From a virus (taxonomy: Duplodnaviria; Heunggongvirae; Uroviricota; Caudoviricetes), in the IMG/VR virus record IMGVR_UViG_2563366977_000006: 13,375 nucleotides of DNA. The stretch is one strand, 5' to 3'. This document shows, in pieces, positions 1,216 to 13,375 of the stretch (positions are counted from its first letter, which is position 1; the number at the start of each line of letters is the position of its first letter). The notes below the pieces were generated by a model. That model was not told the origin of the DNA, ran no database searches, and was given only the letters and a program-made list of their open reading frames with translations. A program made the translations under genes and the position numbers.

Positions 1216-1343
1216 CTGGTTGAGTATACAGTAGTAGACTTTGAGCGATTAAGAAAAGGCTGTGTCTAGGGTCGCTCCTGAAAACTCGTACACCTCTGCG
1301 GGCTGGCACAGCCACTTTTACAGAGGGTGCGAGGTAGCACAGA

Positions 1344-2488: not shown

Positions 2489-3337
2489 ATGAAATTTCCA
2501 AAAACGCCCGTACAGGGGCAGGGCTTCGTTCGGCCTGAAAACCAGAATCTGCAAAATTTTGGCGAAATTATCCCGGTTATTTCCGGCGTTATTGGCGGGC
2601 GTGAAACCAATATTGTTAGCGCCAGAGCGTTGCATAAGGCGCTCGGGGTAGGCCGTGATTTCACTACCTGGATTAAAGGACGTATTGATGAGTACGGATT
2701 TAAAAATGGCGTGGATTTTGAAATTGTAGAAAATTTGTACTTTGATTCCCCGAAACGGGGGAACCAAAGTGTAAATATTGAACAGTTTGATTCTGATTGG
2801 ACAACAAAGCGCGGCGGTGATCGCCGCAGTGAAGACTATTTGATCTCCACGAACATGGCGAAAGAACTGGCGATGGTCGAACGCACCGAACAAGGCCGCG
2901 CCGTTCGCCAGTATTTCATCAAATGCGAGGAGGAGCTACACAAGGTGGCGCCAGTGCGTTCCGCAGCGTTACGCCGGGAACTGAAAGCCCGTATCACCGT
3001 TGCCAGCTACTTTAAGCCGATGTGCGCTGCGCTGGAGGCGTACCGGGCTGAACTGGGTAAAAACACGTTCCAGCACCACTACACCACGGAAGCCAATATG
3101 CTGGCGCGTATCGTGCTGGGTGGCATGACTGCAAAACAGTGGGCACTGGCGAACGGCATCACAGGCGAACCACGCGACCACATGAGCGTGTTGCAGCTTG
3201 AGCACCTTTCTTACCTTGAGCAGAGCAATATCACGCTGATTGAGTTAGGCCAGGACTACCACCAGCGAAAAGCTGAATTAATTCGTCTTTCGCAGCGTTG
3301 GTTAGCCCGTCGCATGGAGGAAAACAGCCATGTGTAA
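2489..3337 (+). CDS. phage antirepressor-like protein (AntA/AntB-type N-terminal domain), 282 aa
   Basis: ATG at 2489 with AGGAG 5 nt upstream. N-terminal motif SARALHKALGVGRDFTTWIKGRIDEYGF resembles the antirepressor-type pattern (..R.LH..L.V...F..W...RI..Y.F). C-terminal half is helical and of unknown family. Assignment is by memory of the motif, not a search. Confidence 0.6.
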   Translation: MKFPKTPVQGQGFVRPENQNLQNFGEIIPVISGVIGGRETNIVSARALHKALGVGRDFTTWIKGRIDEYGFKNGVDFEIVENLYFDSPKRGNQSVNIEQFDSDWTTKRGGDRRSEDYLISTNMAKELAMVERTEQGRAVRQYFIKCEEELHKVAPVRSAALRRELKARITVASYFKPMCAALEAYRAELGKNTFQHHYTTEANMLARIVLGGMTAKQWALANGITGEPRDHMSVLQLEHLSYLEQSNITLIELGQDYHQRKAELIRLSQRWLARRMEENSHV

Positions 3338-4009
3338 CGCTCTGACCGTTACAAAAAGAGAAAGCGCCCCGTTGCCGGAGCGCCTTTGTGAACGAATAGC
3401 CTACTGCGCCATATTGCTTACTGTCTACGAGGCAGATTATAGCGTTGTGGTTGCACAGAGTGAAGGCGTTGATCACCGTTACCACAGCACACCAGAAATG
3501 CAGAATATTTTGCTGCAAAATGTCGTTGGTCACGCTGTCCGGAAAGCAAAAAATTTTGCTGGTGGCGCGACTGATGCGATTTTGTCAGGTCGCCAGGTGC
3601 TGATCAATCTGATGTCTGATTTCGTTCTGGATAAAACAAAGGCGACCGCAGAGGGCCACCAGTGGGAAAGCTACACACTTGAACACATCGCCAACAATGC
3701 CAGATTTGCGGTTGGTGGGCAATGTGATCAGTGTGCTGGCTTGCTGGTGGGCTATTCCTGCTCTTTAACATTGCCATGCCGCGATGTTTTCCAGGTATGC
3801 GACCCCATTTTTGTGCGCCTGTACTCTTTAAGGAATTTCTCAAGGATAAACGCACAGGGCGCGAATCTGTCTGACCCATGCTCGTACGCTATCTTTCTGC
3901 GCTGTCTTTTCCGTGCCGGTGATGGTGTATTGGTTGATTCTTTGTTGGTCATGGCGCTGCCCTGTAAAACGATGCACCGTAGTTCCTTACACCACGGCGC
4001 TGGTGATGG
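3330..4009 (+). CDS. possible translationally coupled gene with unresolved 3' end (possible decayed gene); frame stays open to 4886
   Basis: ATG at 3330 overlaps the upstream stop (cATGTGTAA) and has GGAGG 9 nt upstream, which argues for a real start. The first ~130 codons look protein-like, but later the translation becomes Cys/Ser/Arg-rich and the frame has no stop until 4886, running antisense through the repressor gene and its operators. The end coordinate is arbitrary. Confidence 0.25.
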
Positions 4010-4312
4010 TTACTCCTGTTCTTTGGCCTTGCGGCGCTGGAGTTCTTCACGTGCGACGGTGACGAGCTGCCCGATCTCCTCGACAGCTTTGACTCCGATT
4101 TTTTCCACCTGCGCCAGTGCATTGAGCGAAGAAACCAGGGGATTTTCTCCGCTTCCTTCTGCCTGGCGGCGGGCGATCTCACCACGCATGGCGGTTACTA
4201 TGAATCCGGCGTTGCTTTCGCCGTCCAGTTTTACGGATTCCATACCCTCCATAACATCGTGGGGAACCCTGATCGTTGTCATTTGCGATTTTGCATTTTT
4301 GTATACAGACAT
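4010..4312 (-). CDS. ribbon-helix-helix (Arc/CopG-like) DNA-binding regulator, 100 aa; candidate immunity/maintenance repressor
   Basis: Minus-strand ORF; start ATG at 4312 with GGTGA about 6 nt upstream. N-terminus TTIRVPHDVMEGMESVKLDGESNAGFIVTAMRGEIARRQ fits a beta-strand plus two-helix RHH pattern, followed by a helical/coiled C-terminus. It is divergent from the rightward operon. Confidence 0.7.
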   Translation of the reverse strand: MSVYKNAKSQMTTIRVPHDVMEGMESVKLDGESNAGFIVTAMRGEIARRQAEGSGENPLVSSLNALAQVEKIGVKAVEEIGQLVTVAREELQRRKAKEQE

Positions 4313-4332
4313 AGTTAATCACCAATTAGTTA

Positions 4333-4433
4333 TGTGTATATCACTATACACAAAAGTGAGATATAAAAACACTTGCAATGTATATCACCACAATATAATG
4401 TATATCTCACATTGTGATGGCTATGTATCTCAC
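4333..4433. promoter_or_regulatory. operator-like repeats in the divergent control region (4 copies of ATGTAT(A)TC(T)CAC plus palindromes)
   Basis: Read directly: TGTGTATAtcacTATACACA palindrome 4333-4352; ATGTATATCAC 4378-4388; ATGTATATCTCAC 4398-4410; TCACAtTGTGA palindrome 4406-4416; ATGTATCTCAC 4423-4433. All lie between the RHH gene start (4312) and the first rightward gene (4521). Confidence 0.55.
4373..4399 (+). promoter_or_regulatory. candidate sigma70 promoter for the rightward operon (-35 TTGCAA 4373-4378, 15-nt spacer, -10 TATAAT 4394-4399)
   Basis: Hexamers read by eye. The operator-like repeats overlap the spacer and the -10 element, as expected for a repressible promoter. The spacer is on the short side and there is no experimental support. 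Confidence 0.4.
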
Positions 4434-4520
4434 AATGATCGATTCATAAAAACGACGAAACCCGGCAGTGCGCTAACACTAACCGGGCTTCTAACCAAAC
4501 CGTTAAATGAGGTAACGATT

Positions 4521-4886
4521 ATGGCTGGGGCACAGCATACCCAAACTCACCCTAAATTTATATACACCTTCCTGGCGGTGCACCGTAATTGCATAGCTGA
4601 CGGTAAAAACACTGTTCATGTAGCCGCCGATACGCTGGTTGATGCCTGCGAGATGCTCAATGACATGGGCTATATCTCGGCAACATGGAAAGGGCGCGAA
4701 GAAAACACGCTGTTTATTCAGAAATGCGAAAACAATTTTATCTGGCGTTTTATCGCCCTGAGCACAGCACAACCGCGTGTAATTCACATCGAGGCCACCA
4801 GCGAACAGGAAGCACGCCAGCAATCTCCTGATGGCTGCGTGATGGTATTCGCCGCCCGTATTCGCCAGGAGGTGGAACATGTGTAA
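4521..4886 (+). CDS. hypothetical protein, 121 aa (first gene of rightward operon)
   Basis: ATG at 4521 with TGAGGT ending 8 nt upstream; in-frame part of the long ORF-track ORF 3330..4886. Stop overlaps the next start (ATGTGTAA). Confidence 0.65.
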   Translation: MAGAQHTQTHPKFIYTFLAVHRNCIADGKNTVHVAADTLVDACEMLNDMGYISATWKGREENTLFIQKCENNFIWRFIALSTAQPRVIHIEATSEQEARQQSPDGCVMVFAARIRQEVEHV

Positions 4887-5103
4887 TGCAACATGGCCTG
4901 ATGCAGCGGTAGACGCTATCAAAACGCTGGTGGATTCACTTATTGAGATTTCTGCTATCTCTGGTGTGGCGCATAAACACGCAGCCAGAGAATCAGAATG
5001 CATCTTCCATTATTTAGCATTTGTGCAGCTAAAAGCCGATCAGGCACTGGATAAGGCCGGAAAAATTATCATGGCTGATGTGCAGGAGGTGCACCATGCA
5101 TAA
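4879..5103 (+). CDS. hypothetical small acidic protein, 74 aa
   Basis: ATG 4879 with AGGAGG 7 nt upstream; start overlaps the upstream stop. C-terminus ...DVQEVHHA and the junction CCATGCATAA to the next gene are repeated at 5675-5687. Confidence 0.6.
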   Translation: MCNATWPDAAVDAIKTLVDSLIEISAISGVAHKHAARESECIFHYLAFVQLKADQALDKAGKIIMADVQEVHHA

Positions 5104-5461
5104 CCTGTCAATTTCTGACCTTAACAGCATTCAGTTTGACGAGAAATTTACCGGGCAGCTACTGGTCAATGTGGAGAATGGACGCGTGGTAAGTAATTAT
5201 CACCTGCCGGATGGTGCAATTGCCGGAAGCGTTGAAGCATTGCTGGAGCTGGCAGAACGTGCGCGACTGATTAAGCCGTTAACGTGCCATCACGATGATA
5301 ATCTGCATTTTACCGGACGCATGGTGAGTCACTACGAAAACGGCGTTGAAGTATCCTGCGAACGTCTGCGTGATGATTGCTGTTTCGGCACATTGCCGGA
5401 ATTTATCGAATTGCTGACCAGTTGCGGTTATCAGGTCATTCAGGGGGGTAAACATGCGTGA
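5096..5461 (+). CDS. hypothetical protein, 121 aa, containing two tandem copies of an FTG-x-LV...G-x-V-S motif domain
   Basis: ATG 5096 (MHNLSIS) with AGGAGG 7 nt upstream; overlaps the upstream stop. Internal repeat: KFTGQLLVNVENGRVVSNY and HFTGRMVSHYENGVEVSCE ... PEFIELL. Confidence 0.65.
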   Translation: MHNLSISDLNSIQFDEKFTGQLLVNVENGRVVSNYHLPDGAIAGSVEALLELAERARLIKPLTCHHDDNLHFTGRMVSHYENGVEVSCERLRDDCCFGTLPEFIELLTSCGYQVIQGGKHA

Positions 5462-5687
5462 TGATCGTTTTAATTCCCTGAAACAGGAGTTTGATGGCGC
5501 ACCGGAAGATACATCGGGCGCATTGTTGAACGTTGCTGACATGATGAAAGCTGCATATTTTCTTATCAATACCAATGGCTACAAGTCAGAGGGTGAAATG
5601 ATTCTTAGTATTGCGTCGGACTATGCGGAATATGTGGCAGAGGTGCGTTACAGAAGAAAATTCACGGAGGATGTAAGCCATGCATAA
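5454..5687 (+). CDS. hypothetical small acidic protein, 77 aa
   Basis: ATG 5454 with GGGGGG 6 nt upstream; start overlaps the upstream stop (ATGCGTGA). Ends ...EDVSHA, paralleling the end of the 4879 gene. Confidence 0.6.
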   Translation: MRDDRFNSLKQEFDGAPEDTSGALLNVADMMKAAYFLINTNGYKSEGEMILSIASDYAEYVAEVRYRRKFTEDVSHA

Positions 5688-5880
5688 TCATGAAGCGCAT
5701 GTACCCGTAGTGCTTAATGTGCCAGATGATTTCACCGGACGCGTACTGGTTTACCTGGATAAAGGGAAAGTGAAATCACAACGCCGACTGAAAAGTAATG
5801 AAATTGTGGGTTCTCCTGAGTTTTTTTCTGAACTCTGTATTCGTGCAGAAATAAAACCGGAACTGCTGACAGGAAAATAA
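5680..5880 (+). CDS. hypothetical protein, 66 aa, single copy of the FTG-motif domain (paralog of 5096..5461)
   Basis: ATG 5680 (MHNHEAH) with GGAGG 9 nt upstream; 8-nt overlap ATGCATAA with the upstream gene. DFTGRVLVYLDKGKVKSQRRL ... GSPEFFSELCIRAEIKP aligns with both repeats of the 5096 protein. Confidence 0.6.
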   Translation: MHNHEAHVPVVLNVPDDFTGRVLVYLDKGKVKSQRRLKSNEIVGSPEFFSELCIRAEIKPELLTGK

Positions 5881-5884
5881 AACC

Positions 5885-6175
5885 ATGAAAAAGAAAAATT
5901 CTGGCTTTACTGCCAGCGGTCTCTCTCGGCCTGAAATCAGACACGGAGATATTTACCGCGACACCATACGTGGGGGACGAGCGGTTATTTGTCACGTTAC
6001 GCCAGGAAATATCACCTACCGCCGTGAGGCTTATGAATATGACTGCATAATGCCGCGCCGTCAGTTTGAGCGTGATTTTATTCTGGTGGAGAACAAACAA
6101 CAGGAAGCGACGAGACGTGCAGCCATGAATATTAAAAAAATCCGGGCAATGTTGGTTGCGGGAGGTAAGAAGTGA
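5885..6175 (+). CDS. hypothetical basic protein, 96 aa
   Basis: ATG 5885 with AGGA about 10 nt upstream. Its stop overlaps the GTG start of the primase gene (GTGA). Confidence 0.55.
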   Translation: MKKKNSGFTASGLSRPEIRHGDIYRDTIRGGRAVICHVTPGNITYRREAYEYDCIMPRRQFERDFILVENKQQEATRRAAMNIKKIRAMLVAGGKK

Positions 6176-7977
6176 AAAACGCACCGAGTCTAAAATATCA
6201 GCCGAAGGATAAATTCACTGAGGTAATCATTTTTGCCGGGACGGATGCTTACGCCCATGCTCAACACTGGATTGAAAGTGAAGGACGAAAACACGGCGAT
6301 AACGTGCCTCCTGTTTACCTGGGGCCAAAGCAACTGGCAGACCTGGCGAATATCCGCATTATTGATGAGAAACGCCGTTTTGCGCGTGTCTATATCGCGG
6401 GGGAGATAGAGCCAATCCAGATCAATACTATCGCTGAAAAGCTGGCGCTGGCTGGCGTACAGGAGGCGAAATTATACAAAGGTATCACCGACCAGGAACC
6501 GGAGAACTGGCGCGACTACCTGCAACGGATCCGCGAACAGGCTGAGCACGGGGAAGTTTCAGTGATGAAATTAGCTACAAAAAATAGTGGTCTACCCAAG
6601 CCTGCATTAAATCAGATGGGAGCCAGCCAGAGAGGAGAAGTGTTACTTGAACATTATGGAGGAGCACTGGCGATAAATGATGATTCTGATGTAGTTCACC
6701 ATTACAACGGAATTGTTTGGGAGCCTGTATCTGATAAGGAACTCCAGCGGTCTATGGCGAAGATTTTTATTGATGCCGAAATTAGTTATTCGCAAAACGC
6801 CATTAAATTTGCCGTAGAGACAATGAAATTGAGTCTACCTGTTATGGGGGGAGCGGACAGAAATCTTATTGGGTTCAGTAACGGTGTTTTTGATATCAGG
6901 ACAGGAAATTTTCGGGAACACAACAAAAATGACTGGTTGTTAAATGCCAGTGAATTACCGTTCAGCCCGCCAGAAGAGGGGGAAACGCTGGCAACACATG
7001 CGCCGAATTTCTGGAAGTGGTTGCGTCGTTCGGTGGCGGATAATGCTCGTAAAGCGGATCGCGTACTGGCGGCATTATTCATGGTACTGGCGAACCGGTA
7101 CGACTGGCAGTTATTCCTTGAGGTAACGGGGCCGGGCGGAAGCGGTAAAAGTGTGATGGCGGAGATTTGTACCATGCTGGCGGGTAAGGCCAATACAGTA
7201 TCGGCGAGCATGAAGGCGCTGGAAGACGCGAGGGAACGAGCGTTAGTGGTGGGATATTCTCTGATTATCATGCCTGACATGACCCGCTACGCAGGTGATG
7301 GTGCTGGGATTAAGGCCATTACAGGCGGTGACAAGGTGGCTATCGATCCGAAACACAAAGCGCCCTATTCCACGCGCGTTCCTGCGGTAGTGCTGGCAGT
7401 AAACAATAATGCCATGTCATTCAGCGACCGTAGTGGGGGGATCTCGCGTCGACGAGTGATATTTAATTTCTCTGAGGTTGTACCAGAGAACGAACGCGAT
7501 CCGATGCTGGCGAAAAAGATAGAAGGGGAACTGGCCGTAGTGATTCGCCATTTGCTTACACGATTTGCCGACCAGGACGAAGCGAAAAGACTACTTTATG
7601 AGCAGCAAAAATCAGAAGAAGCACTGTTAATAAAGCGTGAAGGTGATTCGCTGGTGGACTTCTGCGGTTATCTGATGTCGTTGGTTAAATGTGAGGGGAT
7701 GATAGTAGGTAATGCAGAAATAGTGCCATTTAGCCCGAGGCGATATCTGTATCATGCTTATTTGGCTTATATGTCTGCGCATGGTCTGGGAAAACCGGTA
7801 TCACTGACACGCTTTGGTACAGATATGCCAGGGGCAATGGCTGAGTACGGAAAGGAGTACAAGCGGGCTAAATGCACTAAAGGTCCAGATAAAGGGCGAA
7901 CGATCACAAATGTTCTGTTAGATAAAGATGCTGATGGATGGTTACCAGCAGCGGCAGGCATTAACGACAGAACATGA
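6172..7977 (+). CDS. P4 alpha-like / PICI pri-rep-like replication protein (primase C-terminal region plus SF3-type P-loop helicase), 601 aa
   Basis: GTG 6172 with GGAGG 6 nt upstream. Walker A motif VTGPGGSGKSV, followed by a hydrophobic-acidic stretch LVVGYSLIIMPDM (Walker B-like). Size and position immediately upstream of an iteron origin match satellite/phage-plasmid primase-helicases. Family call is by motif and context only. Confidence 0.8.
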   Translation: MKNAPSLKYQPKDKFTEVIIFAGTDAYAHAQHWIESEGRKHGDNVPPVYLGPKQLADLANIRIIDEKRRFARVYIAGEIEPIQINTIAEKLALAGVQEAKLYKGITDQEPENWRDYLQRIREQAEHGEVSVMKLATKNSGLPKPALNQMGASQRGEVLLEHYGGALAINDDSDVVHHYNGIVWEPVSDKELQRSMAKIFIDAEISYSQNAIKFAVETMKLSLPVMGGADRNLIGFSNGVFDIRTGNFREHNKNDWLLNASELPFSPPEEGETLATHAPNFWKWLRRSVADNARKADRVLAALFMVLANRYDWQLFLEVTGPGGSGKSVMAEICTMLAGKANTVSASMKALEDARERALVVGYSLIIMPDMTRYAGDGAGIKAITGGDKVAIDPKHKAPYSTRVPAVVLAVNNNAMSFSDRSGGISRRRVIFNFSEVVPENERDPMLAKKIEGELAVVIRHLLTRFADQDEAKRLLYEQQKSEEALLIKREGDSLVDFCGYLMSLVKCEGMIVGNAEIVPFSPRRYLYHAYLAYMSAHGLGKPVSLTRFGTDMPGAMAEYGKEYKRAKCTKGPDKGRTITNVLLDKDADGWLPAAAGINDRT

Positions 7978-9306: not shown

Positions 9307-10449
9307 ATGAATAAAACTTTAATTGCAACATTAGTCGGTATAGTAATGTTAACCGGATGTGGGCCAGAAGAGTTAACTCCAGAACAGAAACAGGAAGTAG
9401 CGGCTCTTAAAGCTGAACTGTCGCAAACGGAAGGTGAAATATCAGCAGCTAAGGAAGTTGACCAGCAGTTTTCTGGTGGGTTGATAAAAAATCTGACAAC
9501 AGCAAGACTGGAAATATTAGGAACTAATAAAGCGCTTTTGGAACAGCGTATTAATGCTATTGAATCAGGCGCCAAAATTGATGTTGTTGTATCTGGAGTA
9601 AAACCTGATCCTGAGCTTGCGGCTTCAATTAAAACTGAAATTGACAGCTTAGATGCAAAAATCAACGAAGCCAAAGCTGATGCTCGTCAGTATAGTGGTG
9701 GTCTGATAAAGGTACTAAAATTATCTACTGTTGCCACTGAAGAGCAGACCATGGCAATGTTGCAGCAAAAGTACCTCACAGCCAAGTATGGCCTCGCTGA
9801 AGTTAAGCTGGCATCAGTACAAGATAATGACGCAAAAAACAGTACTGAAACGGAAGTAACAGCCAAAAATTCCCAAGAGCAACTTCCTTTACTCCCGCCA
9901 GCGGATGGTCCGTTTGGCTTAGAAGCCGGTCTTACACAGAAAAACATCGAAGATATGATCGGTGCTAAGCTCAAGCCACTACCAGACAGTGTGAATCTGT
10001 ATACTTCTGATAAATTACCGAAGCAAAACGCAGATTTTGAAATGTATGGTTTGTTGATCTCCCCGAAAGCTGGTTTATGTCAAATACGGGCTTTAGGAAA
10101 AAATATTGATACTGATAGCTATGGATTGGCTCTTAAATCCAAGTTTGAAGAATTGAGTAATTCTTTAAGTTCTCTGTATGGAAAGGCTGATACTACAGAC
10201 TTTTTGCTGGCTGGTTCAATTTGGAAAGATCCTCAGGACTGGATGAGGGGGCTAAACAAAAAAGAACGCTTCTTATCTGCCACATGGAAGGGAACAAAAG
10301 AAATACCATTAAAAAACAATATTGATACTATCTCTATTGAGGCCAGAGCGAACAATTCCACTCAGGGATATGTCTATCTGCAGTACTCATTTACAAATGA
10401 CGAAATTTGTCAGGCAGAAATTGAAGGGGCGAAAAAAAGTTCCCTTTAA
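9307..10449 (+). CDS. lipoprotein (380 aa) with internal tandem repeat and C-terminal globular domain; function unknown
   Basis: Signal peptide with lipobox MNKTLIATLVGIVMLTGC (Cys18, Gly at +2). Two repeat units each carrying ...AK-x-D-x-Q-(F/Y)-SGGLIK-x-L... (SGGLIK at nt 9472-9489 and 9694-9711). AT-rich compared with the replication genes. Confidence 0.8.
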   Translation: MNKTLIATLVGIVMLTGCGPEELTPEQKQEVAALKAELSQTEGEISAAKEVDQQFSGGLIKNLTTARLEILGTNKALLEQRINAIESGAKIDVVVSGVKPDPELAASIKTEIDSLDAKINEAKADARQYSGGLIKVLKLSTVATEEQTMAMLQQKYLTAKYGLAEVKLASVQDNDAKNSTETEVTAKNSQEQLPLLPPADGPFGLEAGLTQKNIEDMIGAKLKPLPDSVNLYTSDKLPKQNADFEMYGLLISPKAGLCQIRALGKNIDTDSYGLALKSKFEELSNSLSSLYGKADTTDFLLAGSIWKDPQDWMRGLNKKERFLSATWKGTKEIPLKNNIDTISIEARANNSTQGYVYLQYSFTNDEICQAEIEGAKKSSL

Positions 10450-10461
10450 ACAATCCGTGCA

Positions 10462-10488
10462 AAGCCCCTTAGTAAGGGGCTTTTATAT
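10462..10488 (+). terminator. intrinsic terminator after the lipoprotein gene
   Basis: Perfect 9-bp stem AAGCCCCTT (10462-10470) / AAGGGGCTT (10474-10482) with 3-nt loop, followed by a T-run (TTTTAT), 13 nt after the stop codon. Confidence 0.7.
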
Positions 10489-10513
10489 ATTAATGTTCAA
10501 CGGGGGGGATTAG

Positions 10514-10837
10514 ATGAAAGATAATCTAGAAAAACTAATTGAAAATACTTTAAAAGATATTCTATTAGCTAATGCTGCTCTAACATTCATTTTTGCAATA
10601 CCAATGGCTATTATCAGTAGGCATGGGATGGGCATCACAATCTGGTTTATAACTGTGCTCATTGCACCTGCTCTGTGTGCAGTAGGTGCATGGCTTGTAT
10701 CTCGAACATTCGGCCATGCTGAGGAGTTCTTTCATCGTCGGTGGGCTAAGCGAATTTATGTTTTTTATACTCTTGCGGCTGCCGAGTTTTTGCTTGTGTA
10801 CTCAATCGCGCAAATAATGAAAAATCTGATGAAATAA
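10514..10837 (+). CDS. small integral membrane protein, 107 aa (2-3 predicted TM helices)
   Basis: ATG 10514 with G-rich SD upstream. Hydrophobic stretches AALTFIFAIPMAII, ITIWFITVLIAPALCAVGAWLV and YVFYTLAAAEFLLVYSIAQIM. AT-rich. Confidence 0.6.
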   Translation: MKDNLEKLIENTLKDILLANAALTFIFAIPMAIISRHGMGITIWFITVLIAPALCAVGAWLVSRTFGHAEEFFHRRWAKRIYVFYTLAAAEFLLVYSIAQIMKNLMK

Positions 10838-11026
10838 TTAACAAGTTATTATCATGGGGTTTGTGGCTGTTAACCTGCAGTGAGGCGACAATCGTGTATT
10901 TATAAAAACTTCCCCTTTTCACTCCCCGCTGTTTCTTCTGCTATTTCCTTTATGTTTGCATGCAGCAACATCTGCCATACCTTTGCAGAAAAATCAGAGC
11001 ATTTAGTGCCGAAGGTTGGTTTATTG

Positions 11027-11119
11027 ATGCTTTTTGTTTCATTTATTGCAATTATCGCTGGTATCATTTCAATTTGTGCAATAATTGCAATTATTGTCAT
11101 TCAGAAGGGATCATCATGA
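11027..11119 (+). CDS. possible 30-aa hydrophobic peptide MLFVSFIAIIAGIISICAIIAIIVIQKGSS (single TM)
   Basis: In-frame ATG inside ORF-track ORF 10880..11119, with AAGG about 11 nt upstream. Almost entirely hydrophobic with a polar C-terminus. Its stop overlaps the ATG of the next gene (ATGA). Could equally be non-coding. Confidence 0.3.
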   Translation: MLFVSFIAIIAGIISICAIIAIIVIQKGSS

Positions 11120-11283
11120 AAAATCACGGAGTAAAGCCAGTTTTACTTTCCCGGGGGCAAATCGAAGCCCTGCAACGTATCCAGGCCGAAAGGCGTCAGA
11201 AATCTGTGCTTGGTGTGGCACCGTCGATTCATGTTATTGCCCGGCAACTGATGGATAAGGCACTTAAAGAGGTGAGGCTGTGA
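11116..11283 (+). CDS. hypothetical small protein, 55 aa
   Basis: ATG 11116 with AGGGA 6 nt upstream; in-frame within ORF-track ORF 10960..11283, whose N-terminal part is Cys/Tyr/Asn-rich and implausible. Stop overlaps the GTG start of the next ORF. Confidence 0.5.
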   Translation: MKNHGVKPVLLSRGQIEALQRIQAERRQKSVLGVAPSIHVIARQLMDKALKEVRL

Positions 11284-11552
11284 AATTAAATATCAGAGTG
11301 GATAAACGCCAGCTATGGCAGAAAAAAGAGAACAGCGAGGCATTCAGGGCTTTGCTGGTGGAAAATCTTCGGCACCGGTTCAGTGGAGAGTTGCCTGATG
11401 CACTGGGGAAGAAACTGGAATCCCTGACGGTGGAAATTGGCGATTATGGCTTTGTTGATGTTGAAAGCACGACTGCCAACACAGAAATCGTAAAGCAGGT
11501 CGTCAATGATGTAATGAAAACCACGCTTAGCCAGCCATCCTGGCGCAACTGA
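11280..11552 (+). CDS. hypothetical protein, 90 aa
   Basis: GTG start overlapping the upstream stop (GTGA); followed by a hairpin terminator. Confidence 0.5.
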   Translation: MKLNIRVDKRQLWQKKENSEAFRALLVENLRHRFSGELPDALGKKLESLTVEIGDYGFVDVESTTANTEIVKQVVNDVMKTTLSQPSWRN

Positions 11553-11558
11553 ATCAGT

Positions 11559-11583
11559 AAGGGGCGGTTATTGCCCCTTTCCT
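11559..11583 (+). terminator. probable intrinsic terminator
   Basis: 7-bp stem AAGGGGC (11559-11565) / GCCCCTT (11573-11579) with 7-nt loop, followed by a short T/C-rich tract. The T-run is weak. Confidence 0.45.
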
Positions 11584-11651
11584 CCATACCCACAACGCAT
11601 TCCCTTTTCGCATGAAATTATTTTTTATCGTATATGCATGAGGTGAGCTAC

Positions 11652-12176
11652 ATGTTGATGAGTAAAGCCGAATACGCCAAATACAAAGGCGTAAGCCGCC
11701 AGACAGTTTACGACTGGATCGAGAAAGGCGAAGTGATCATGTCTGGCAAAAAAATTGATGTGGAGGCGACAGAGCAGCGGAACAGCCCACCGGCACAGGG
11801 GAAAGACACCGTTTCTGAAATGTGGCCAGAAAGAACGCTGGAAATGACGTGGGGCGAGTTCTGGAAAGCAGTTAAGGCCAGAGACGGTAAAATCCCTGCG
11901 CCAGTAACGGACGACGACATACAGCAACGTGTGCTGGATGCAGCCGGGGAATTCGGCTGGGAAGTGCAATTTCTTGATGATGGCGGGATTTGGATGGATG
12001 ACGGCGATGCTGAGTTTTATTTCGAGCAATATGATCTCAGGCAGAATGCCGAACTGGTGATTGGTACGCTGCGACGTGAGGTCTGTTATGTGGCTGATGC
12101 TTGTCCTGACGAGCTGGATAACTGGAGCGAAGCCGGACTAAACGCCCTGGCTGCATGGGAAAAAACAGGTCATTAA
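11652..12176 (+). CDS. HTH DNA-binding protein (Nu1/excisionase-like winged-helix N-terminus) with acidic C-terminal domain, about 175 aa
   Basis: ATG 11652 with GAGGTG 6 nt upstream; ORF-track start 11634 and ATG 11658 are alternatives. N-terminus MSKAEYAKYKGVSRQTVYDWIEKGEV has the pattern of small-terminase Nu1-type / excisionase-type HTH. The C-terminus is Asp/Glu-rich. Confidence 0.65.
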   Translation: MLMSKAEYAKYKGVSRQTVYDWIEKGEVIMSGKKIDVEATEQRNSPPAQGKDTVSEMWPERTLEMTWGEFWKAVKARDGKIPAPVTDDDIQQRVLDAAGEFGWEVQFLDDGGIWMDDGDAEFYFEQYDLRQNAELVIGTLRREVCYVADACPDELDNWSEAGLNALAAWEKTGH

Positions 12177-12183
12177 CGGCCGC

Positions 12184-12466
12184 AAAAAGTGTCAAGTTGA
12201 GCAGCTTGCCAGGTTGACACTTTACACTCTGAACACGAAAAAGTGTCAACCTCGCTGTAAGCCCCGCCGTTACTGGCTTTGCGCCATATTTACCACATCA
12301 AAAAGCAGAAAAAATCGCGAAAAGTGTCAAGTTGCCATGCTTAGAAATGCTAAGTTTTGTTAAGGTTTTTCGCGAAAAAGTGTCAAGTGTGTCAACCTGC
12401 GATATTAAGATTTATTAAGGTCTTAAGCCGGAAAGTGTCAACCAGCCCCTAAGATTTCCTAAGGTG
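12184..12466. repeat. interleaved iteron array: 6 direct and 1 inverted copies of AAAGTGTCAA plus 3 copies of TAAG-N-TTT-NN-TAAGGT
   Basis: Read directly. AAAGTGTCAA cores at 12186-12195, 12240-12249, 12321-12330, 12377-12386, 12432-12441; inverted copy at 12214-12223; partial GTGTCAAC at 12390-12397. Second family: TAAGTTTTGTTAAGGT 12351-12366, TAAGATTTATTAAGGT 12406-12421, TAAGATTTCCTAAGGT 12449-12464. Confidence 0.7.
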
Positions 12467-12489
12467 TGATTGAACGTGCTGTAACCTTC

Positions 12490-12518
12490 TTGTCGTAATG
12501 TGGATGAATGACTATAGT
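12490..12518 (+). promoter_or_regulatory. candidate sigma70 promoter for the AT-rich downstream gene (-35 TTGTCG, 17-nt spacer, -10 TATAGT)
   Basis: Hexamers read by eye at 12490-12495 and 12513-12518; about 47 nt upstream of the ATG at 12565. Confidence 0.35.
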
Positions 12519-12564
12519 GCTGGTAACTTTGACCGCAGAATCAGATTACTGAAGGAAGTGTGTG

Positions 12565-13146
12565 ATGAGTTTTTTTAGTCTTTATGGGAAAGAACTATTT
12601 TCTTTTTTTATAGCGATTTTAACATGGATACTGAATAACAGATTTAAAAGCAAGGCAAAGTTATCCTATGGTTATCAGCATGGATTTACTTTTCTTCTCA
12701 ATGAACCCTTACGGAATGCTAATGGTGAGGTAATATCTAATTCACAGTTGGTGTATACACGATCTATTATTCTTGTTAATGAAGGGCGAGAAAGTGCTAC
12801 TAATATATCATTGGTTTTTAACTATAAACCAATGCATATTAATTTTTGGCCTGTCCACCATTTTGAAGAAAATATTGAACAGGATGGTCGCTATATTATC
12901 AAGTTTGAAAACCTTGCACCTAGTGAGTCTATTCAATGTGAAATATTATCAATAAATAGAGAAGTTCCAAGTATTCTATCGATAAGATCTAAAGAGTGTG
13001 TGGCTGAGCCAGTGAATATCGTGATGCAAAAATCGATTAGTAATATTGCCCTACGTTGCTATCAATTATTAATACTTCTTGGAACTGGCACATTAACATA
13101 TTTAATTATCGTTATTCTGCAATGGTTAGTCACTAAAACGGGATAA
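12565..13146 (+). CDS. hypothetical protein, 193 aa, with N- and C-terminal transmembrane helices flanking a ~140-aa central domain; very AT-rich
   Basis: ATG 12565 with GAAGGAAG upstream; the ORF track starts one codon earlier at GTG 12562. N-terminal TM LFSFFIAILTWIL; C-terminal TM LLILLGTGTLTYLIIVILQWLV. Hand count of 12601-12660 gives about 28% G+C. Confidence 0.7.
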   Translation: MSFFSLYGKELFSFFIAILTWILNNRFKSKAKLSYGYQHGFTFLLNEPLRNANGEVISNSQLVYTRSIILVNEGRESATNISLVFNYKPMHINFWPVHHFEENIEQDGRYIIKFENLAPSESIQCEILSINREVPSILSIRSKECVAEPVNIVMQKSISNIALRCYQLLILLGTGTLTYLIIVILQWLVTKTG

Positions 13147-13195
13147 TCCATTGTGTTGAACTTATTAATTGGATATGAGTGCTGATAGGAAACCT

Positions 13196-13375
13196 ATGAC
13201 CATCACCGAAGCCGATATGCTGGAGATGATCCGCAGCATTGCCGGAATCAAACAACCAGCAAGCAAAATTAACAGGTGTTCAGCGCCTGTTTCCGTTGTG
13301 CTGCAACAGGAACGCCACCAGCAGGATGATGTAAGGCCGTATCAGTGGAAGAAACCGGACAGGCCGCGACGGTGA
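13196..13375 (+). CDS. possible small ORF (59 aa) at window edge, unknown function
   Basis: ATG 13196 with AGGA 7 nt upstream; ORF-track version starts at 13169. G+C returns to about 53% (hand count 13201-13260). No motif recognised; could be a chance ORF. Confidence 0.3.
   Translation: MTITEADMLEMIRSIAGIKQPASKINRCSAPVSVVLQQERHQQDDVRPYQWKKPDRPRR

Follow-up and report, generated by a model that had tools for sequence, protein, structure and literature searches.

The 13,375-nucleotide (nt) stretch analyzed here (IMG/VR virus record IMGVR_UViG_2563366977_000006; "the window" denotes it at full length) is a Gram-negative phage-inducible chromosomal island (PICI) of the EcCICFT073/EcCIMP1 type. 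Its early operon carries four small genes, termed A1, B1, A2 and B2, between an Icd-like open reading frame (ORF) and a P4-family primase gene. The B proteins hold three copies of one domain, which sequence comparison places in the FsoA/GfoA/Rem family of small prophage antirepressors. Because of this homology to FsoA and Rem, and because the genes lie in the slot of epsilon in satellite P4, we propose, with roughly even confidence, a four-cassette PICI early operon whose B domains act as antirepressors of resident prophages. The four small genes are independently exchangeable cassettes and not a duplicated gene pair, since all combinations occur among related loci and the insertions and deletions are precise cassette-sized units. 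The genes are as follows.

4879..5103, plus strand: A1, 74 amino acids (aa), an optional cassette (phrog_5146)
5096..5461, plus strand: B1, 121 aa, two tandem FsoA/Rem-like domains (about 5129-5269 and 5309-5449)
5454..5687, plus strand: A2, 77 aa, an optional cassette, acidic, with three predicted helices (phrog_24341)
5680..5880, plus strand: B2, 66 aa, a single FsoA/Rem-like domain, the most conserved cassette (E 1.9e-26 with the B-family hidden Markov model, HMM)

A triplicated domain of the FsoA/GfoA/Rem family

An earlier reading of this DNA from its letters (the original prediction) had seen an FTG-motif domain twice in the protein starting at 5096 and once in that starting at 5680. Several comparisons agree. 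BLASTP aligns B1 with B2 in two segments (E 2e-8 and 7e-5), pairs of FTG domains reach Smith-Waterman z-scores of 6.8 to 13.5 with none of 1000 shuffles scoring as well, phrog_340 matches B1 twice and B2 once, and our own B-family HMM also matches B1 twice. At the level of sequence, these results confirm three domain copies, two fused in B1 and one in B2. The profile search for this motif that the original prediction had called for returned 83 matches among 1.84 billion representative proteins, mostly single-domain proteins of 60-90 aa with a few two-domain ones, and profile comparison recovered both Rem and a candidate for FsoA. In tblastn searches of the INPHARED phages, B1 had no match at E<=0.01 and B2 had weak matches only, whose membership of the family was subsequently verified with the HMM.

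The family assignment is carried by two relatives. The B family aligns with E. coli K-12 Rem (b1561, Qin prophage) by hhalign (probability 94.8%, E 4.8e-8), and Rem scores 27.6 bits with our B-family HMM. A 78-aa ORF of the Fels-1 prophage, STM0898.2n, which contains FTGRVVLYIENGRV, scores 93.2 bits (E 6e-29) with the same HMM. B2 is 36% identical to it (E 1e-9), the two B1 domains align with it at E 3e-7 and 2e-6 (BLASTP), and identities over B2 and both B1 domains range from 33 to 43%. Its place in the Fels-1 left operon is the STM0896-STM0897 interval, to which fsoA has been mapped (Lemire et al. 2011, PMC3121763). Because it lies in the mapped interval and is the best GfoA-like ORF of that stretch, STM0898.2n is very probably FsoA. 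In addition, the Pfam model PF27490 ('Rem') is recorded in precomputed annotations of two B1 homologs (P0022 and P0024) and, weakly, of the B-family member P0199.

The members of this family share a core of about 50 residues, FTGR-hhh-x-h-ENG-x-h, followed by a hairpin and an amphipathic helix ending AG(Y/W/F). The AlphaFold2 (AF2) model of B2 (pLDDT 89.5) shows a beta-hairpin (residues 21-37) and a helix (residues 46-55). The family proteins are also of similar size (66-83 aa), which B2 fits as a 66-aa single domain, whereas B1 differs in fusing two domains in one 121-aa chain. Further differences are that the B genes are carried by a satellite (a PICI) and not by a prophage, with three domain copies in one operon, and that antirepressor action is known for FsoA, GfoA and Rem and predicted for B. 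We know of no earlier description of this family in a PICI.

Gene position adds to the likeness. As with fsoA, the B genes lie among the small genes of an early operon, outside the immunity region. In temperate phages, the early-left operon carries B homologs (77-97 bits) among its small genes, downstream of the repressor gene. In a lambdoid nin-type region, a distant homolog occupies the position of rem. Satellite-like loci have B ahead of DUF4222 and of a D5_N- or DUF927-type primase.

We further note that, in the LT2 records of Gifsy-1 and Gifsy-2, the ORFs downstream of the dinI homolog (L098 36665-36886 and L099 11464-11685) are identical at the protein level, which fits the duplicate gftA stated to be present in LT2 Gifsy-1 (Lemire et al. 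2011, PMC3121763).

Proposed antirepressor function and its alternatives

The known activities of these relatives concern prophage repressors. FsoA inactivates the Gifsy-2 repressor, and GfoA, GfhA and GftA are antirepressors of Gifsy prophages (PMC3121763). Rem, whose discovery came through its likeness to two Salmonella antirepressors, GfoA and FsoA, lifts the repression of dicBp by DicA 165-fold (Ragunathan et al. 2023, PMC10448788). By analogy, Rem probably acts on DicA through the same repressor-binding mode as GfoA, which forms a complex of A2B2 stoichiometry with its repressor GfoR (PMC3121763).

The second line of argument is the arrangement of satellite P4, with which the window operon is syntenic. 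The P4 left operon consists of cI-ORF (icd-like), epsilon, orf151, orf106 and alpha, and epsilon, labelled 'helper derepression protein' in the P4 record, fills the first slot after the icd-like ORF. The epsilon protein binds the C repressor of P2. In both elements an icd-like ORF, small genes, a small DUF protein and a P4-type primase follow one another in the same order; the first two P4 junctions (cI-ORF/epsilon/orf151) show 8-nt overlaps preceded by GGAGG; and the cassettes of the window occupy the epsilon slot, after the icd-like ORF and upstream of the primase. The job proposed for B would likewise be that of epsilon, a satellite protein disabling a helper repressor by binding it. In hmmsearch and hhalign comparisons, P4 epsilon, orf151 and orf106 show no similarity to the A1, A2 or B families.

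Given this homology and position, B1 and B2 would most likely inactivate short CI-type repressors of resident prophages. Once the icd-to-primase operon is transcribed, its overlaps would couple the translation of all cassettes with that of the replicase. Among the repressors of resident lambdoid prophages, B would then bind those of the short, non-cleavable CI type (DicA/GfoR/GtgR class) and strip them off their operators, so that potential helper prophages would be derepressed or co-induced. The two divergent domains of B1 in one chain could form a built-in dimer, and three divergent B domains may provide a wider or tuned repressor range. Multiple specificities for B would be in line with the selective target ranges of GfoA, GfhA and FsoA (PMC3121763), and repressor-specific targeting would fit both the cassette combinations and the B hybrids described below. 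New arrays might arise through recombination at the short Shine-Dalgarno/overlap junctions and through unequal crossover between B domains.

If B acts like its relatives, this E. coli PICI type would carry its own helper-derepression function. To our knowledge, satellite-encoded helper derepression has so far been known only for P4 epsilon. For Gram-negative PICIs, helper derepression is reported not to have been seen (PMC6092414). Such a function would change the view of helper range and of prophage cross-talk in island-bearing strains, and would offer a first clue to the role of genes that carry no annotation beyond hypothetical, with the caveat that EcCICFT073 has A1-like and A2 genes and no B gene.

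Several points weigh against this proposal. The antirepressor activity and the host target repressor are both deduced from sequence and position, as is any benefit to the island, and A1 and A2 are left unexplained. The equation of STM0898.2n with FsoA comes from the mapped interval and the GfoA similarity and not from a published sequence. B matches GfoA itself weakly (hhalign E 1.4e-3, probability 14-17%), though in the same register, and PF27490 is recorded on homologs and not on B1 or B2 of the window, for which the local Pfam scan lacked that model. Structure searches were uninformative: a sequence search of PDB with the B profile gave nothing meaningful, and the AF2 fold of B2 had no structural neighbor in PDB or BFVD. 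Timing is a further difficulty. The Gram-negative PICI operon is believed to be on only after helper induction, and an incoming PICI is reported to have given no phage induction (Fillol-Salom et al., PMC6092414). Helper derepression would be partly redundant because of this order of events; the element of that study, EcCICFT073, is itself without B genes. B may instead co-induce other prophages, reinforce the induction of the helper, or act as the island enters a new cell.

More tentatively, and with clearly less confidence than in the antirepressor proposal itself, one may imagine Gram-negative PICIs as more than passive responders to helper induction. The shufflable antirepressor set of this island, with three FsoA/Rem-type domains and a single-chain double form among them, could actively awaken several heteroimmune resident prophages and so recruit helpers; A1 and A2 would be specificity or control modules, and cassette exchange at the overlap junctions would track the repressor repertoire of local prophages.

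A related possibility is that the B proteins are antirepressors aimed not at the helper but at cryptic-prophage repressors (DicA, RacR) or at repressors of the island itself. Division inhibitors and exclusion functions (DicB/DicF, Icd) would then be switched on, with growth arrest or abortive infection following once the operon is triggered. Among E. coli family members, only Rem has a known target, DicA of the cryptic Qin prophage, and it causes filamentation (PMC10448788); the window operon opens with an Icd-like division inhibitor. In ECOR61, moreover, growth is arrested upon expression of a phage accessory gene by an Icd-like gene with two small, overlapping genes downstream, all part of a set of six linked genes in which a primase is included (bioRxiv 10.1101/2023.04.06.535777). 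However, FsoA and GfoA act on functional prophages, no island repressor is known, and kinship of the ECOR61 small genes (61 and 63 aa) with the B, A1 or A2 families would be conjecture. We regard this alternative as unlikely.

We find it somewhat less probable still that the cassettes are generic fast-evolving accessory genes for anti-defense or host takeover, the likeness of B reflecting only a shared protein-binding fold. Combinatorial presence and absence, the pN/pS of 0.79 and the variable middle of A2 (see below), the distant B homolog in a nin-type region, and the failure of A1, A2 and the window B proteins to match any family in the local Pfam, NCBIfam and PADLOC libraries would all suit such genes. 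Yet the similarity of B to FsoA and Rem is specific and spans the whole domain, and no known anti-defense family was matched. Among the functions guessed at by the original prediction, derepression thus gains substance for B from the FsoA/Rem homology and the epsilon slot, while helper interference and anti-defense found no support, PADLOC giving no match.

A role of B, together with DUF4222, as a replication accessory factor, for instance a primase/helicase partner, appears improbable. In most loci, some with a TOPRIM/DUF927 primase among them, B does lie directly upstream of DUF4222 and the primase gene, but the loci were gathered by B2 similarity, so sampling accounts in part for this adjacency. 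A homologous primase and DUF4222 stand without B in EcCICFT073, whose cloned rep-ori is reported to maintain a temperature-sensitive plasmid at the restrictive temperature (PMC6092414). Phage left operons and nin regions that have no primase also contain B homologs.

Independent cassettes and overlapping junctions

A1, B1, A2 and B2 are all annotated as hypothetical proteins by PGAP in the identical locus of E. coli SCU-104, and in PHROGs they match only families of unknown function. Across 23 distinct alleles that share the A1-B1-A2-B2 architecture of the window, internal stops are absent, with pN/pS values of 0.35 for A1, 0.22 for B1, 0.79 for A2 and 0.10 for B2. The four are confirmed as real, translationally coupled genes. 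No promoter was found inside the small-gene array, and no plus-strand terminator-like site within 4879-5880. A2 has conserved ends and a variable middle, and its helices come from a low-confidence predicted model.

The original prediction held that the genes at 4879/5096 and 5454/5680 form two paralogous pairs, a tandemly duplicated two-gene cassette with partner-specific functions. Pairwise alignment bears this out for B1 and B2 and fails for A1 and A2. The latter give no BLASTP alignment at E<=100, their Smith-Waterman z-score is -0.8 with only the last six residues aligned, and hhalign of the two families gives a probability of 0.2%. As compared by sequence and profile, A1 and A2 are not homologous, and a tandem duplication of the two-gene cassette was rejected on this ground, the B domains alone being related. 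The small A proteins are acidic, as stated, but only mildly so (isoelectric point 5.6 for A1 and 4.7 for A2). Neither A1 nor A2 has a family assignment, a structure match or any sign of pairing with B. Within the sampled loci both are restricted to PICI-type loci, and no homologs were found in the phage loci examined. As a stand-in for co-folding, the natural B1-A2 fusion P0004 was modeled with AF2 (pLDDT 45.8, pTM 0.29), which is unusable for judging an interface.

Cassette composition was compared over 80 IMG/VR loci and three genome loci, gathered by similarity to B2 and scanned with HMMs built from our own alignments; this sampling is biased toward A1-BB-A2-B. Between icd and DUF4222-primase, the following arrays were seen.

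B: 6 loci
A1-B: 9 loci
A2-B: 1 locus, plus 5 with another replicase
A1-A2-B: 7 loci
B-B: 5 loci
BB-B: 5 loci
BB-A2-B: 2 loci
A1-BB-B: 1 locus
A1-BB-A2-B: 37 loci, the commonest

A1, B1 and A2 are thus present or absent in every combination across the 80 related loci. In pairwise DNA alignments, the A1 unit (217/218 nt) is missing exactly in L022 (218 nt) and L038, and the A2 unit (226 nt, from the A2 start to the B2 start) exactly in L037 and L038, with flanks around the missing cassettes 91-97% identical. Gain and loss as A-B pairs was accordingly rejected, single genes coming and going as exact units. Similarly, DNA matches in 5426 complete E. coli genomes number 641 for A1, 643 for B1, 763 for A2 and 298 for B2 (about 12% of genomes for B1 or A1, 14% for A2 and 5% for B2), and only 103 genomes hold the whole region. 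Among B1 homologs are many hybrids in which domain 1 is fused with domain 2, or B1 with B2, at varied points, a pattern that we read as the signature of unequal crossover between repeats.

Beside these families, two further small-gene families (about 75-78 aa) fill array slots of EcCICFT073 (L087 10050-10280 and 10707-10940) and have look-alikes in Pectobacterium loci (L003 5573-5809 and 6207-6434). Other unclassified cassettes of 62-80 aa occur in L064-L084.

The remaining operon genes and the junctions between the small genes are listed below.

4521..4886, plus strand: Icd-like ORF, first operon gene, called as 121 aa by other pipelines on public contigs
about 4731-4886, plus strand: Icd-like domain (NCBIfam NF033153 phage_ICD_like, E 7.9e-23); the Icd-like gene is annotated as partial by PGAP
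5885..6175, plus strand: DUF4222 protein, 96 aa, between B2 and the primase (Pfam PF13973, E 8.5e-18)
6172..7977, plus strand: P4-family primase/helicase (D5_N, DUF5906, Pox_D5), last operon gene, with a 4-nt GTGA overlap at its start
4868..4886, plus strand: icd/A1 junction, GGAGG-N6-CATGTGTAA, 8-nt stop/start overlap
5085..5103, plus strand: A1/B1 junction, GGAGG-N4-CCATGCATAA, 8-nt overlap
5443..5461, plus strand: B1/A2 junction, G6-N5-ATGCGTGA, 8-nt overlap
5666..5687, plus strand: A2/B2 junction, GGAGG-N7-CCATGCATAA, 8-nt overlap

The pairs were said to lie directly upstream of the replication gene; in fact the DUF4222 gene intervenes. The A-to-B junctions do share an identical 10-mer, CCATGCATAA, found in the window only at 5094-5103 and 5678-5687 (expected count 0.07), as the original prediction had noticed. 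The pattern GGAGG-N3-8-CATGNNTRA, however, has four matches in the window (0.03 expected), at AntA-to-ORF3330 and icd-to-A1 as well as at A1-to-B1 and A2-to-B2, so that the GGAGG/overlap junction is general to the operon and not specific to the A-to-B pairs. The shared (V/S)HA ends of A1 and A2 are likewise present, but carry no signal of kinship because the 8-nt overlap forces H-A-stop: one frame of ATGCATAA gives M-H-N and the other gives H-A-stop, the downstream M-H-N codons ATG-CAT-AA(C/T) being read CAT-GCA-TAA in the upstream frame. Such overlaps are widespread. Among 102 distinct junctions from the 80 related loci, 48 have an offset of -8, the commonest, 25 of -4 and 18 of -11, and because of these junctions most of the small proteins start M-x-N or M-R-D. 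In general, 8-nt overlaps (ATGnnTRA) after GGAGG or a G-run dominate the arrays, both at 4868-5687 of the window and in loci L002-L084.

That an ancestral A-B pair was duplicated in tandem, each acidic A working with its own MHN partner, is the least probable of these readings: the alternating A-B-A-B order and the identical 10-mer would suit it, and natural B1-A2 fusions exist but pair B1 with A2 and not A2 with B2, while A1 and A2 lack homology at the sequence or profile level, every cassette is found without its supposed partner, the junction motif is operon-wide with the same 8-nt overlaps in P4, and the AF2 model of the fusion is too poor to reveal an interface.

These fusions arise at the B1/A2 junction, where a G6 homopolymer (5443-5448) stands just ahead of the A2 start. 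A G5 version, with one G lost, fuses B1 and A2 into a 196-aa protein and is common in other strains (P0004, P0006 and P0009, in clusters of 13, 46 and 156 member sequences). The short conserved overlap junctions may themselves be the recombination sites of cassette shuffling, since cassettes are gained and lost exactly at them.

The icd end of the operon is also unusual. A 518-codon open frame (3330-4886, plus strand) starts at the AntA stop through a GGAGG-N-CATGTGTAA junction and ends as the Icd-like domain, running antisense through the minus-strand genes 3752-3952 and YlcI/YnfO (4010-4312). Because the frame upstream of icd is open back to the AntA stop in >35 related loci despite a variable length (242 to 557 codons), selection to keep it open is suggested. 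Long frames ending in icd also occur in L087, L093 and L094. Opposite the start of the 121-aa icd ORF lies a SymR-like antisense RNA match (4454-4526, minus strand; E 2e-4) that is below threshold, at 35.9 bits against a gathering score of 61.

Island identity and gene context

Region 4500-6200 of the window is 100% identical to E. coli SCU-104, whose island of about 16 kb is inserted at tRNA-Thr beside proA. The order of genes in that island is given in two parts.

First part: int; hypothetical; AlpA-like helix-turn-helix (HTH); antA; two minus-strand genes (hypothetical, YlcI/YnfO)
Second part: Icd-like; four hypotheticals; DUF4222; P4-family primase/helicase; ProQ/FinO; PerC; cargo

We took as marks of a PICI an integrase, AlpA, a primase-rep module, unidirectional transcription, a size of about 12-20 kb, a tRNA or other unique attachment (att) site, and a lack of genes for phage structure or lysis. 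The island has int, an AlpA-like HTH, a primase, PerC, a length of about 16 kb and a tRNA-Thr att site, and there are no structural genes among the SCU-104 island annotations. It is classed as a PICI and not as a P4-like satellite because sid, delta and psu are missing. Helper-dependent induction, packaging and transfer have been reported for EcCIMP1 and EcCICFT073, both characterized by experiment (PMC11773190, PMC6092414).

The island is syntenic with both elements. With EcCICFT073, the prototype E. coli PICI, it shares int, AlpA, YlcI (minus strand), icd, four small genes, DUF4222, primase and PerC. The array of EcCICFT073 includes a 73-aa A1-like gene and an A2 gene and differs in having two other small genes (76 and 77 aa) in place of B1 and B2. 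The att site (tRNA-Thr/proA, thrW/proA) is that of EcCIMP1, which also has a closely similar integrase and AlpA, AntA and PerC homologs; it differs in its TOPRIM/DUF927 primase and in lacking all A and B genes. In the literature searched, we found no studies on these small genes of EcCICFT073/EcCIMP1-type islands.

Outside the small-gene array, the cargo end (9307-13375) encodes a 380-aa putative lipoprotein, small membrane-like proteins, an HTH protein and a 194-aa protein, and PADLOC gave no defense match there except a weak mad1-like one for 11634-12176. The antA/KilAC antirepressor-family gene (2489-3337, plus strand) is intact in the window and encodes 282 aa; its SCU-104 counterpart is annotated as a pseudogene with an internal stop, so that the window differs from SCU-104 outside 4500-6200. 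Between int and the next gene, an int-alpA RNA (Rfam RF02996) matches at 1259-1327 (plus strand) with 44.7 bits, above the gathering score.

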